Shown: piece by piece, positions 9,001-15,000 of the stretch
How the letters are laid out: every line of letters starts with the position of its first letter
Position numbering within the stretch: position 1 is the stretch's first letter
Assembly: GCF_057098645.1 (NCBI RefSeq)
Contig: NZ_CM169472.1
Reading direction: 5' to 3' (one strand)
Length of the DNA stretch: 64,000 nt
Position numbers: made by a program

Positions 9001-12000
9001 TCTTACGGTGTATTACCTCCGCTTTGTAAAGACCATTGATGCTCTCCGCCATCGCGTTGTCATACGAGTCGCCTGTACTTCCTGTTGATGCCAGTAATCC
9101 GGCTTCCTTAAGCCGCTGTGTGTAGGCCAGCGATACATACTGAGAACCTTTATCACTGTGATGGACCGTGCCGGACGGTCGACGGGCCCATAACGCCTGC
9201 TCCAGTGCATCCAGCACGAATGTCGTCTCCATGGACGATGAGACCCGCCACCCCACAATGTATCCGGCAAACACATCAATGATGAACGCCACATAGACGA
9301 AGCCCTGCCATGTGCTGACGTAAGTAAAATCAGCCACCCACAGCTGGTCAGGTCGTTCTGCCACGAACTGACGGTTTACGCGGTCGCCTGCGGCAACGGC
9401 TTTCCGGCTGATGGTCGTACGGACCTTTTTACCCCGGAGAACACCGGCAAGTCCCATAACCGCCATGAGACGTGCCACAGTGCATCTGGCCACTCTGATA
9501 CCTTCCCGTAACAACTGACGCCAGACTTTACGCACACCGTATACCTTGTGATTTTCATCGTATACGCGCTGTATCTCTTTCTTCAGCCAGTCATCGCGCT
9601 GCGCACGGGCACTGCGTTTATCCGGATGATGTCGCTGTTGCTGACAGTGGTAATACGTTGACGGGGCAATATGCAGTTCGCTGCATAGCGGTCCGACCCC
9701 GTACTGCTCACGCAGCTTATCCAGCAGTGGCATCATTTTTTCCAGAGGCGGTCGAACTCCGCCTTCGCAAAATAAGCGGAAGCCTGGCGAAGGATATCGT
9801 TACTGCGGCGCAGTTCACGATTTTCACGCTCCAGCTCTTTCAGACGCTGACGTTCAGCGGTGGTGAGCCCTCCATCACCGCCCCCGGTATCCCGCTCATG
9901 CTGGCGAACCCAGACACGCAGAGTCTCCGGCGTACAGCCAATCTTTGGAGCAATGGAACAAATTGTCGCCCATTGTGAGTCATATTCGCCCTGACTTTCC
10001 AGAACCATACGGACTGCCCGTTGACGGACTTCAGGGGAAAAACGAGTATTTTTAGTCATCCTGTTTACCTCTTTCTCAGGAAGTTTAGTCTCCAGGATTC
10101 CCGGGGCGGTTCAGACTGGTTATAGGGCAGATCAAACAGTTCAAGTTGCGAAAATAGCCATCCTGTCACCCCACTCACTTCAGGACGGATAAAACTAAAC
10201 TTCAGCGGGTAGAGAAAAAAACCGCAGCAGGCCATTACCGTTGCCAGAATAAGCCGGTGGACAAGTCGGCGTTGTTCGAATGTCGAGCTACAAACGAACA
10301 GCGAAAATCCATATAAAAGATCCAGACTCCAGTAAGGAACAATAGTCCAGGGGAGAAAAGGGATCGCCGTTTCCCAGCCGAATACCTGACTGGGGATATC
10401 ATGGCTGTTAAAGTCCTGAACCGCGGTGAACTGATTAAGAGATCCATAGGTGAAGAAGAAAAACGGGGCCAGCAACAATAACCAGCCAGCGCCTTGTAGC
10501 AATACGTTCCGGCGTTCAGTTATCACGACGCACCGCCATCGAAACCGTAAAAATACCCCACTCATCAATCCGTTGTGTGCATTTATCAAATCCGGCATCA
10601 CGCACGAGTGAATCCATTTCCCCTTGCGAACGCACGCGCATTACCCACGGTTTACCATCTTTATGACTGGTTAACACCCCGGCAATTAGCTCCAGTTGTG
10701 GGTGCCACGGCTGCCCGGTGTAGATGAGAATGCCACCCGGTTCGATGGCATTGGCAAGACCTGCGAGGGAGTTCTTTACCTGCTCATTTTCGGGAAAAAG
10801 CTCATACAGTCCAGAGACAATCGCCAGCGTAGGCCGCGGAGTTAACGCGCTGAGTTCCTCCGGGTTAAACGCATCACCCTGTTCAAAACGCACCTGCCCA
10901 GACATTCCCCGTTGGGCAATCATCTCTTGCCCCTGTGCAACATTTAACTCGCTGTAATCACGTAACAAAATATCGCTTACGGCAGGCTCGTTTGCCAGCG
11001 CATCCAGTACATAGCGCCCATGCCCTGCGGCAATGTCAACCACGCGGACGGCTAAACCTTTGGCGTGGAGATCGGCAACGGCTTGTTTAATCAGTATTTG
11101 TAAATGGGTTTTGCGCTGGCGAATACCGCGCCAGCCAACACTGTTCAGGTAGATTTTGTCGACTAAACGCCCGAATGCGTTACTACCTTGCGGTTGATTT
11201 TGATAGACATAATCCAGCGAACTGCCTGAATCAAAGCCGGTGCTCATTCCGAGATGCAGGCCCGCAGAGTGCGCCCCGAACAATTTCATCGCCTTACGCA
11301 TAAAGCGATACGCCAAATCAACCGGCGATAATGGCACGGGTCCACCAGAAAGGAGCCGCCATCGATCCGCTGATGGTCCAGTGCAGTCTTCATGCTGATA
11401 ATCAAATTTTTGCGATTTGTTAGCATATAAGCGACTAATAAAGCTTTGCATTTTTTCAAATGCCAGCGCCCTGTTCTCTTCACCCAACGTGTCGTGATAA
11501 AAGCCTGGCAGCAGATGCAGCTCTTTGAGAGGGCTACGTAAACGCTGATAAAAATCGATCTGCGGTTGGCGATGCACCACATAGTCATCGCCTGATATCA
11601 GAAGTTGCGTGGGGAGCGTAATCGCCGCCGCATCGCTAACAATACGTTCAGACGTTTTATAGAGATCTAGCAAGATATTGACGGCAATCGCCCTTGTGAT
11701 CAGCTGATCATTATTGAAACTCGCCACCCGTTGCCGATCGTGGGTCAAATAGCGTCCTTTCACATAGGAATTAATAAAAAACAGACCACGCAGACGATGC
11801 CATAACGCCAGCGCAGGACGTGCCAGCGGCACATACAATTTAACCTTAAAGGCCGGAGAAGCCAGCAGCAGCCCGCGAATTGCAGGCGCATAATCATGAA
11901 CCCATGTGGCAACCAGTACTGCGCCGACGCTCTGCGCGATCACTACCACCTCTTCCAGCCCGACCTGGCTGTCGCTGGCAGCAAAACGGACAAACTCATC

Positions 12001-15000
12001 GACATCCCGCACTGAACGCGCAAGAGATGGGCTATAACCACGGGGCCCCGAAGTTTGTCCATGCCCTCGGGCATCCCATGCATAAAAAGCAGTATCTGGC
12101 ATCGCCAGTTCATCAACGATATGTTGTAGACGACCAGAATGTTCATGACCGCGATGAAATAAGACGATGACCTTTTTCGCCCCTGGCTGTAAAGCGGGCC
12201 AGTGCCGATAAAACAACGCTGTATTATCACTGGTGGTAAAAAAATGTTCCCCAGGGATGCGTGAATTTTCCATTTTCTCTATTTTCCTTCAGTAACAGCA
12301 GTAGCGAATAAAATAAAAAAATACCGGAGCGGTGAAAATTAATGAGTCAATCCTGTCAAGGAGTCCGCCATGTCCTGGTAATAGTTTTCCGCTATCTTTA
12401 ACACCCACATCTCGTTTGACGGCTGACATCACTACATCGCCGCAAAAACCACTAATACCAATTAACAAACCCGCTAATAATGCCTGTAATGTATTTAGCG
12501 GTGTCAGCAACGGTCCAATAATCAGTGACGCAATCATGGTGGTGATGACGCCCCCCACCAGACCTTCCAGCGTTTTTCCCGGGCTGACTTTGGGGACCAC
12601 TTTTCTTCTGCCGCAGGATTTCCCCCATAAATACTGTGCAATATCGTTTGACTCTGTTAACGCCAAAAGAAATAACACCAGTAACGCCCCGCCCTGGGTA
12701 TTTGTGGTTGGCAACATTAATAACCAGGCGGCATGACTCAAGGCAAAAACGGTCATTATCCAGCCCCAAAAAATGGCGCTCACGGTATGCAGAAAACCGG
12801 AGGGATCACCCACAAAAACTCGCCAGGTGGTTAATATCAGAAACCCAGCCAAAGGTATAAATAACAGAAACAGCTCAAAGCAATTAAAACCGATAAGCAA
12901 ATAGTTAAGAGGAATAACCCAATATAACCAACGCGGAAAATGTACGGATATAAGCGTACAATATTCTTTCAATGCCAGAAAACTTATCAGCGCAAAAAAC
13001 GTCAACGTCATCCAGCGTGGACCTGAAATCACCAGTGAAAAACAAATGACGATACCCCACCAGGTACGAATACGTAATGTAACTTCATCCCCTTTTCTCT
13101 CCGGTAACCGCCATACCCGAAAACGGTTTATCAGCGTTGCTAAAATTAACAACGCGAAAAGTGTTGCCAGAGATTTTTCCAGCATTATCTTTCAGCACTC
13201 ATCAGGAGCACACTCCGACAACGATTAATCGCAGTCCAGATAAGCAGAATTGAAGCAATGCCCCATAAAAGATTATTCCATTGCATCCACTGTGGATAAA
13301 TGGCAACGGCCAGCCCCCACAACCCAAATATTAACGCACGATCGCTTTTGCCGAATGGACCGGCATAACTGCGAATACCGTTAATCGTCTGCGCGAGTAA
13401 ACCGCAAAACTCAGTCAATATGGTGCAAAATAACATGAGTATTACGAGTGATGCGTTACTTTCCGGTAAAAATAAAAACGGTAAATAGAGCGCAATATCG
13501 GAAATAACATCGCCAGTTTCATTCAAAATCGCCCCCAGACGTGTTTGCTGATTGCACTCACGCGCCAACATGCCATCCAGCGCATTGAGTGCCATACGGA
13601 TAAAAAGCACGATGGGCAATAGCAAAAAGAGGATGGGTTGTGCGACCAACATCAACAGCAATCCGGTAATAAGAGAAAGCGCCAGTGCAGCAAGAGTGAT
13701 GTGATTCGCTGTAACATGGTGCTTATAAAGCCAAAACATCGTCGGCCTTAACAGCGACTGAAAGAGCGGTTTTATCTGGTAGAGCGTCATTATCAATCCT
13801 TGATAATTCGGTTTGCGCTATGGTGCATCAATTCCCCTGACGGAGATATCGCAACACGACGCTTCATTAAAAATTCAGAATATATCAAGGTATTGGGGAC
13901 TCACTGTCAGGAATGATTATCCCAATAAATCAAGTGGTTAAAAATTATTACGCTGTTATTCAATACAACTCATCAAGTTTTCTCATCGCTTGTTCCCGTA
14001 TTGCGCGCGTCTTACCGTTAAGCGCCAGCTGGCGAACTAAATCCAGTTCAGGGTTAACAAGCTCTAACGCCAGCAAAGGATCACGTTTCAGCCTCGCCTT
14101 TAATACATCAACTGGAAAACGGGGATTATTCATCGCCACAATCCACCACTCGGGATCAATTTCTGCCGCCAGTACTGCAGGCGGTGTGTGGCGGTTGTTA
14201 AGTGCGCCGAACTTGAAAAATGTGAGATTGCTTTTCGCCAGTGTACTCCACCATATACGATCCGGTTGTTTTGCCAGTACATCCAGTTGTGCTAACGCAT
14301 CGGGGTCTAGTGCATAATAAACACGTAACGCTTCGTTAACCTGCGCACGGGAACTGTTTTCCTGCCTCAGAAAAAACTTCGCCCAAATATCATTGCGTGG
14401 CGTGTTTTGCTGTAATTCCTTGAGAACAACAGCGGGTAAATTATCCCAACTAATTAATGCACTCTCTAAAAAGTCCCAGTCGTCCGAACGTATCAGAGAG
14501 GTGGCATTTAATAGCATCTGGTCATCAACTTCACCGTAGCTGATAAGCTCAGACAAAATCATATCAGCGCTGGTTTCATATGCATCTGAATCTGCTTTGG
14601 GATTATTTTTCCGATGCGATAAAGCACGTTGCCAAATTTTTTGTTTCATCGACGTGCTCAGATACTGATTTTTCGCCAGATTACTCCACCCCTCAGGATC
14701 GTTGAAACGTGTCAATAACCGTTGTAAAGCAGCGTCAGAGTGAATTATCTGCATATCCCGACAGCAAAAGTAGGCAGGGGATTTTTTCTCCATCCTTTTA
14801 ACAAAATTAAACTGTAAGTTATCTGGCAACGCTAAAAATAACGCACCTATTAGATCATCGTCATTCTCGAATTTTTGGTATAAATATACTGCTATTTTGT
14901 CACTCTCTTGTGGCGTCATCCGCAACAATTGACCATGGTGTTTCATCTCTGCCAGCTTTAACGCTAAGCTTGTGACAACATCGTTTGATGAATCGTTCGC

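Follow-up and report, generated by a model that had tools for sequence, protein, structure and literature searches.

What lipid, if any, does the ynbABCD operon of Escherichia coli make, and what is lost when an insertion sequence (IS) breaks its last gene? Both questions are raised by a stretch of 64,000 nucleotides from contig NZ_CM169472.1 (NCBI RefSeq assembly GCF_057098645.1), referred to here as the window, in which ynbABCD lies on the minus strand and ynbD is split by a copy of IS629. A first-pass annotation of the window had named the four genes as a cytidine diphosphate (CDP)-alcohol phosphatidyltransferase (ynbA), a CdsA paralogue (ynbB), a hydrolase-methyltransferase fusion (ynbC), and a PAP2 plus dual-specificity phosphatase (DSP) protein (ynbD). 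It had read them as a pathway to a head-group-modified lipid with a poorly defined product, and had proposed that the pathway would stall at a phosphorylated intermediate. Open reading frames (ORFs), Pfam matches, and orthology agree with all four names and with the minus strand, and ynbA, ynbB, and ynbC are intact according to both the ORF listing and direct reading. The gene order ydbD-ynbA-ynbB-ynbC-ynbD-azoR matches that of K-12 in synteny, gene length, and identity; K-12 ynbABCD (b1408-b1411) has the same locus, gene lengths, junctions, and RefSeq product names at about 97% nucleotide identity, the difference being the 1310-bp IS629 that is present here in ynbD codon 138. On the chromosome of this O145:H28-like E. 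coli, the ynbABCD operon occupies the interval between ydbD and azoR.

The interrupting element was annotated correctly as IS629: it is 1310 bp long, has inverted repeats and a 3-bp target duplication, encodes orfA and orfB together with the frameshift pseudoknot, and matches, at 1310/1310 positions, copies from Shiga toxin (Stx)-converting phages whose deposited name is "IS3 family IS629." It is present as a single copy within the window. Length, orfA/orfB -1 frameshift pseudoknot, and 3-bp duplication are those of the IS629 insertions in Shiga-toxin-producing E. coli, and only the insertion site is new. The element interrupts ynbD in codon 138, after 413 nucleotides (...YNQS/PSLH...), and the break lies one codon ahead of H142, which is the first catalytic His in the membrane domain of YnbD. 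The 5' part is predicted to give a product of 138 native and 15 IS-encoded residues, with its stop codon at 10065-10067, that contains the first four predicted helices (residues 2 to 41, 59 to 75, 82 to 105, and 120 to 131) and no catalytic His or Asp. The 3' part retains the PAP2 motifs C2 and C3, further transmembrane helices, and the DSP domain with Cys384. The split had been recognized in the first-pass annotation; the IS and the 3' part of ynbD fall outside the span that it reported.

In silico removal of the IS and of one GTC copy restores a 438-residue YnbD that is identical to WP_000627337.1, and the IS-free operon is identical at 4581/4581 nucleotides to that of the O145:H28 strain RM12581. 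A 160-bp probe for the junction had no match at a coverage of at least 80% in complete RefSeq E. coli genomes (0/5,426). Since the junction is absent from these genomes and the restored operon is identical to that of O145:H28, the insertion is recent and private to this strain. Candidates for the same insertion in other complete genomes (at least 80% query coverage) were rejected and represent separate events. The presence of IS629 had raised the suspicion that the window derives from O157:H7 or Shigella; this was also rejected, given that 24 kb of flanking DNA shows 100.0% identity to O145 and related strains and that the ynbD of O157:H7 is only 97.6% identical. Taken together, these results leave no room for doubt as to the identity of the operon, that of the insertion, and the disruption of ynbD. 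The operon is a named one, the IS is common, and the insertion event as such is ordinary and adds to already known biology.

YnbB matches PF01148 over its full length (238.8 bits). It appears to be a paralogue of CdsA and not CdsA itself, since the NCBIfam CdsA equivalog matches only its C-terminal half, with 113.8 bits against a cut-off of 385. YnbA reaches 38.6 bits with PF01066 (gathering threshold 22). The NCBIfam models closest to YnbA are archaetidylinositol-phosphate and phosphatidylinositol-phosphate (PIP) synthases, which rank ahead of PgsA; all remain under their cut-offs (NF040950, 74.4 bits versus 180; NF045883, 47.7 bits versus 170), and the match to the PgsA model TIGR00560 is weak (E value of 4e-7). 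A search of PDB sequences identified PgsA1 of Mycobacterium tuberculosis (PDB 6H53; E value of 5e-8) as the best solved relative. The two proteins share a fold-length alignment, in which N69, D72, N90, and D94 of YnbA align with D68, D71, D89, and D93 of PgsA1, and R151 and R190 align with R155 and R195. In PgsA1, D68, D71, and D89 ligate Mg-1, D89 bridges both metals, D93 is the presumed base, and R155 and R195 bind the phosphate of inositol phosphate (PMC6506517). YnbA therefore keeps the equivalents of D71 and D93 and the Arg pair for the acceptor phosphate but has Asn in place of D68 and D89, the Mg-1 and bridging ligands. It also differs in that R94 of PgsA1, typical of inositol-phosphate users, is not kept, in addition to its low PIP synthase score.

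These replacements are a property of the family. The motif of YnbA, N69-x2-D72-G-x2-A-R-x8-G-x3-N90-x3-D94, departs from the four-aspartate signature D-x2-D-G-x2-A-R-x8-G-x3-D-x3-D, and the family-wide pattern is N-x2-D-G-x2-A-R-x8-G-x3-N-E-x2-D-x3-D, with Asn at the first and third signature Asp. Asn occupies both positions in 127/129 motif-bearing representatives (50%-identity set), and a set of 45 diverse YnbA-family sequences shows no variation at N69, N90, R151, or R190. The alignments place YnbA in a distinct subfamily without the canonical four-aspartate site and suggest that its acceptor is probably anionic, i.e., phosphorylated. The phosphorylated intermediate of the first-pass annotation thereby gains support, as the nearest characterized relatives use inositol phosphate and the phosphate-binding Arg pair is invariant in YnbA.

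YnbD has been recognized as the fourth PAP2 protein of E. coli (PMC7413402). Its C-terminal part (residues 300 to 438) is a DSP domain (PF00782, 97.7 bits) that has the expected fold, the loop HCALGLSRS (HCx5R(S/T)) with Cys384, and the invariant general acid D354. This domain is no closer to PTPMT1, the mitochondrial DSP-fold phosphatidylglycerophosphate (PGP) phosphatase (PDB 3RGO/3RGQ), than to protein-directed dual-specificity phosphatases, and it differs from PTPMT1 in being membrane anchored by fusion. The membrane domain (residues 1 to 215) does not reach the Pfam cut-off of 27 for PAP2_3 (the intact protein scores 19.0 bits and the fragment 25), and many YnbD orthologues carry precomputed PF14378 or PF01569 hits. 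We compared it with the three PAP2 motifs, namely, C1 (K-x6-R-P), C2 (PSGH), and C3 (SR-x5-H-x3-D). The C2 (P139-S-L-H142) and C3 (S175-x6-H182-x3-D186) motifs of YnbD are invariant or nearly so in distant orthologues, a YnbD-family profile matches the C3 region of PLPP1 (E value of 0.005), and the domain has the PAP2 helical-bundle fold, with the head-group transferase Aur1 as the best fold match. The C1 motif is not retained, since only P115 is invariant and K109 and R114 vary, and the Arg of C3 is Thr or Val. We take the lack of the C1 Lys/Arg to be a resemblance to transferase-type PAP2 members, such as Aur1 and the sphingomyelin synthases. Because C1 Lys/Arg and C3 Arg are not conserved and Aur1 is closest in fold, the membrane domain is more likely to be a phospho-head-group transferase than a phosphatase. 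The domain assignments of the first-pass annotation are thus borne out by Pfam for YnbA (PF01066), YnbB (PF01148), YnbC (PF12146 and PF12147), and the DSP domain of YnbD (PF00782), and fold and motifs agree with its PAP2 domain below the Pfam threshold, but the phosphatase chemistry implied for the latter is probably wrong.

YnbC is a fusion of PF12146 (225.7 bits) and PF12147 (505.9 bits). All PDB matches of the hydrolase half at E values of <1e-10 are monoacylglycerol lipases, the best at 1.9e-13. Since a search of the literature returned nothing on PF12147/Methyltransf_20, the methyltransferase half is left without an assignable function.

To place the operon in a wider context, we used a YnbA-family alignment to scan ~100,000 species genomes, which returned at least 593 relatives, and analyzed 80 loci among them, onto which the E. 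coli proteins were mapped. These loci span Enterobacterales, Pasteurellaceae, Pseudomonas, Rhizobiales, Neisseriaceae, Campylobacter, methanotrophs, Bacteroidota, Desulfobacterales, and others. A number of conclusions can be derived. (i) The full cluster has six genes, i.e., ynbA, ynbB, a lysophospholipid-type acyltransferase, ynbC, ynbD, and a small membrane protein, which are found head to tail in Hafnia paralvei (locus L006, 8001-13584). The acyltransferase, a PF01553 member with the HX4D motif, sits between ynbB and ynbC and most resembles Aas/AGPAT models. The small protein (~135 to 150 residues; no Pfam or NCBIfam family) was found at 36 loci, mostly directly after ynbD. (ii) At 58 loci, the flanks of ynbA reach at least 6 kb in both directions. 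Here, ynbA is accompanied by ynbB, the acyltransferase, ynbC, and ynbD in 28 cases, by ynbB and the acyltransferase only in 16, and by ynbC and ynbD only in 7. Less frequent are ynbB with the acyltransferase and ynbC (2 loci), ynbB with ynbC and ynbD (2 loci), and ynbB with ynbC (1 locus), and none of the four is present at the remaining 2. (iii) YnbD is always accompanied by YnbC (37/37 loci), and the two-domain fusions are universal (YnbD, 43/43; YnbC, 47/47). Locus composition and this co-occurrence suggest an architecture of two modules, a core (ynbA, ynbB, and the acyltransferase) and an accessory module (ynbC, ynbD, and the small protein). Independence of YnbD from the other genes would have spoken against the pathway, and the linkage is strong. 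(iv) Natural fusions of YnbA with YnbC (807 residues; P0313, L004, 1210-3633) and with the acyltransferase (436 residues; P0316, L005, 8001-9311) tie the activities of YnbC and the acyltransferase to a single pathway.

These data are compatible with the following scheme, to which, in its detail, we assign a probability of about 35 to 40%. YnbB would make CDP-diacylglycerol (CDP-DAG), from which YnbA, PIP synthase-like with an Asn/Asp metal site, would move the phosphatidyl group to an anionic, probably phosphorylated acceptor. The cytoplasmic DSP domain of YnbD would then take off that phosphate, in analogy to PTPMT1, which dephosphorylates PGP, and to the PgpA-like BT_1525, which acts on phosphatidylinositol phosphate. 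The Aur1/sphingomyelin synthase-like PAP2 domain of YnbD would hand the phospho-head-group to another acceptor, and the product would be remodelled or methylated by the lipase and methyltransferase of YnbC; in other bacteria, the lysophospholipid acyltransferase and the small membrane protein would complete the cluster. In the present strain, whenever the normally poorly expressed operon is on, both activities of YnbD would be lost, the YnbC-YnbD branch would no longer function, and the product of YnbA would be left as it is unless one of the housekeeping phosphatases PgpA, PgpB, or PgpC processes it. It is in this sense plausible that the pathway stalls at a phosphorylated intermediate, and the fitness cost of ynbD::IS629 is probably small.

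Among experimentally defined systems that follow the same logic, the nearest is the inositol-lipid cluster of Bacteroides thetaiotaomicron, which consists of the PIP synthase BT_1523, the PgpA-like PIP phosphatase BT_1525, the Aur1-like inositol phosphorylceramide (IPC) synthase BT_1522, and the myo-inositol-phosphate synthase (MIPS) BT_1526 (PMC9246714). The three steps in common, of which those of ynb are predicted from sequence, are a CDP-alcohol-family transferase, a lipid-phosphate phosphatase, and an Aur1-like transferase. We have not filed ynb as a member, since no inositol-phosphate synthase occurs in or near the ynb clusters at the 80 loci. Further differences are that in ynb the phosphatase takes the form of a DSP domain joined to the transferase and not of a PgpA-type enzyme, that ynb also includes a CDP-DAG synthase of its own along with a lipase-methyltransferase, an acyltransferase, and a small membrane protein, that YnbA has Asn at two Asp positions of its metal site, and that E. 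coli makes no sphingolipid acceptor. A bolder version of the scheme, which we consider doubtful, would make the ynb cluster an undescribed lipid head-group relay, in which a variant CDP-alcohol transferase with a private supply of CDP-DAG, a DSP, and an Aur1-like transfer to a second envelope acceptor act in turn, and ynbD::IS629 would be a natural mutant that accumulates an intermediate.

Several observations weigh against the proposed scheme. (i) YnbA is without two of the four signature aspartates, and canonical two-metal catalysis is not assured. (ii) Overexpression of YnbD, in experiments that the first-pass annotation had missed, rescues neither PGP phosphatase nor undecaprenyl pyrophosphate (C55-PP) phosphatase mutants (PMC7413402), which also sets YnbD apart from PTPMT1. 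(iii) Because 16/58 loci have ynbA, ynbB, and the acyltransferase without ynbC and ynbD, the core can work without YnbD, and dephosphorylation by YnbD is not obligatory for it. (iv) When all ORFs neighbouring the 80 loci were clustered, only the acyltransferase and the Pfam-less small membrane protein recurred, and no recurrent head-group supply genes (inositol-phosphate synthase, sugar-nucleotide enzymes, glycosyltransferases, or flippases) were found. (v) The E. coli operon is, by this comparison, a reduced form with 4/6 ancestral genes, and no remnants of the acyltransferase or the small membrane protein were found in the window. (vi) About 15% of complete E. coli genomes do not have the operon. 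(vii) No ynb-dependent lipid has ever been reported in the literature, and the product is as poorly defined as first annotated. (viii) An in-frame chimeric ORF that starts in the right end of IS629 could in principle be a source of N-terminally truncated YnbD with the phosphatase domain; we found no convincing Shine-Dalgarno sequence upstream of it on reading the sequence.

Points (v) and (vi) also bear on the alternative that survives best, namely, that ynbABCD is a decaying and functionally irrelevant remnant in E. coli, in which case the IS629 hit would be neutral and without a lipid phenotype. The survey of the 5,426 complete genomes detected ynbD at a coverage of at least 80% in 4,602, with 806 lacking it and 18 containing a part, whereas ynbABC was complete in 4,267, partial in 338 (~6%), and absent in 821. 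Since the operon is missing in about 15% of E. coli, it is dispensable. In keeping with decay, two of the six ancestral genes are already lost, independent IS3-family elements interrupt ynbB (strain PO06021) and the ynbC/ynbD boundary (strain UTME-3, with a deletion), deletions of ynbB and ynbD are viable (PMC6362211, PMC7413402), and the published activation of the ynbA promoter by BglJ-RcsB was obtained with a constitutively expressed bglJ allele (PMC3950696). On the other hand, all four frames are full length in most E. coli, and dN/dS values against K-12 are between 0.10 and 0.24 for all four genes, which are therefore held by purifying selection where they are present. In addition, ynbB has a measurable effect on the glycolipid MPIase and on growth in the cold (PMC6362211, PMC11413397). 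We thus regard functional irrelevance as rather unlikely.

This effect of YnbB on MPIase, which the first-pass annotation had missed, is the sole experimental function in the operon, and it suggests another alternative. ynbABCD might be a back-up route to MPIase, which is essential; YnbB would make CDP-DAG, and YnbA in place of YnbB would couple it to N-acetylglucosamine (GlcNAc)-1-phosphate to give GlcNAc-pyrophosphate-diacylglycerol (GlcNAc-PP-DAG), an anchor with a pyrophosphate linkage, YnbC and YnbD would catalyze later steps, and the loss of ynbD would trim the cold-inducible MPIase capacity. Overproduction of K-12 YnbB, a CDP-DAG synthase paralogue with a reported CDP-DAG synthase activity, does raise MPIase (PMC6362211), YnbB is unable to replace CdsA for bulk phospholipid synthesis, and ynbB is cold induced (PMC6362211, PMC11413397). 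The invariant phosphate-binding Arg pair of YnbA would fit such a reaction, and Asn for two acidic metal ligands would suit a doubly anionic sugar-phosphate nucleophile. However, YnbB supplied alone on a plasmid suffices to raise MPIase, and the authors assign the synthesis of compound I to CdsA/YnbB; the deletion of ynbB is viable, alone changes little, and leaves the MPIase level unaltered (PMC6362211). The absence of the operon from about 15% of genomes is difficult to reconcile with an essential product, Rhizobium, Pseudomonas, Campylobacter, Neisseria, and methanotrophs have the cluster although they are not known as producers of the MPIase glycan, and no glycosyltransferase recurs near the 80 loci. 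Within the operon, this literature covers only ynbB; for the synthesis of enterobacterial common antigen linked to phosphoglyceride (ECA-PG), ynbB was found not to be required (PMC8609368). A route to MPIase consequently seems improbable to us. Still less probable is a spare route to phosphatidylglycerol, in which YnbA would serve as another PgsA and YnbD would be the fourth PGP phosphatase, a redundant one that the IS would simply remove: the weak match of YnbA to the PgsA model, the two phosphatase-type domains of YnbD, and the membership of PTPMT1, a genuine PGP phosphatase, in the DSP fold would agree with it, but it is disfavoured by the failure of ynbD overexpression to rescue a pgpA pgpB pgpC conditional mutant (PMC7413402), YnbA scores far better with inositol-phosphate-type synthases, and no role would be left for YnbC or the Aur1-like domain.

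The coordinates of all features are listed in Table 1. The junctions of the operon agree in part with the initial description of the four genes as translationally coupled. The ynbA stop codon and the ynbB start codon share 1 nucleotide (TAATG; TAA of ynbA, ATG of ynbB), and ynbD starts with a GTG at 10526 that results in an 11-nucleotide overlap with ynbC; in contrast, ynbB and ynbC are separated by a spacer of 15 nucleotides, AGGAAAATAGAGAAA, so that coupling in the strict sense holds for two of the three junctions. The span initially given for the operon ended at 13796, which is an alternative in-frame TTG upstream of the RefSeq ATG of ynbA at 13790, and began at 10114, which coincides with the final ynbD base preceding the IS. 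A consensus scan for promoters and terminators between 7400 and 14400 detected nothing upstream of ynbA; as it returned fewer promoter-like sites than shuffled sequence, it is uninformative.

Table 1. Features of the ynbABCD locus and other features of the window
Feature	Coordinates	Strand	Details
IS629 (IS3 family)	8804-10113	-	1310 bp; same orientation as operon; imperfect terminal inverted repeats
orfA of IS629	9733-10059	-	HTH_Tnp_1 domain; intact
orfB of IS629	8846-9736	-	rve domain; intact
ALIL frameshift pseudoknot in IS629	9662-9778		RF01497, Rfam 120 bits; intact
Target-site duplication GTC, upstream copy	10114-10116	-	
Target-site duplication GTC, downstream copy	8801-8803	-	
ynbD, 5' fragment	10114-10526	-	413 nucleotides, codons 1-138; reads on into IS
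ynbD, 3' fragment	7897-8800	-	Codons 139-438; cut off from start codon
Chimeric in-frame ORF	7897-8880	-	327 residues; ATG at 8880 inside right end of IS629, second ATG at 8862; continues into 3' part of ynbD
ynbC	10516-12273	-	585 residues; intact; alpha/beta hydrolase (monoacylglycerol-lipase-like) + Methyltransf_20 S-adenosylmethionine (SAM) methyltransferase fusion
ynbB	12289-13185	-	298 residues; intact; putative CdsA-paralogous CDP-diacylglycerol synthase
ynbA	13185-13790	-	201 residues from RefSeq ATG; intact; ORF call and RefSeq annotation of identical gene
ydbD-ynbA intergenic region	13791-13959	-	Identical to O145:H28 relatives; in K-12 carries ynbA promoter activated by BglJ-RcsB (PMC3950696)
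ydbD	13960-16272	-	769 residues
feaR	30245-31150	+	Internal stop at codon 60
paa and fea side observations	19045-19299; 21617-22363; 28510-30009	-	

A few observations concern other genes of the window. ydbD, directly upstream of ynbA and in the same orientation, is identical to the O145 copy, and its RefSeq product is "DUF2773 domain-containing bactofilin." The internal stop of feaR is shared with the O145 strain RM9872. Between paaX and paaF, the sequence does not differ from that of RM9872, whose annotation has only a partial, unnamed coding sequence at this place, so that the paa cluster seems to lack a part. In the RM9872 annotation, paaC and feaB are pseudogenes; both are open frames in the window.

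As one more IS629 hop in an IS629-rich lineage of Shiga-toxin E. coli, the insertion matters little, its target being dispensable and mostly poorly expressed. It does, however, make this strain a clean natural ynbD null, in which ynbA, ynbB, ynbC, and the flanks are identical to those of ynbD+ O145:H28 strains, and the product of this widespread lipid operon could come to light if the null and ynbD+ strains were compared under inducing conditions. The comparative additions made here, namely, the six-gene ancestor, the ynbC-ynbD module, the non-canonical metal site of the YnbA family, and the probably transferase-like membrane domain of YnbD, bear on the synthesis of MPIase and on the role of the fourth PAP2 protein of E. 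coli.

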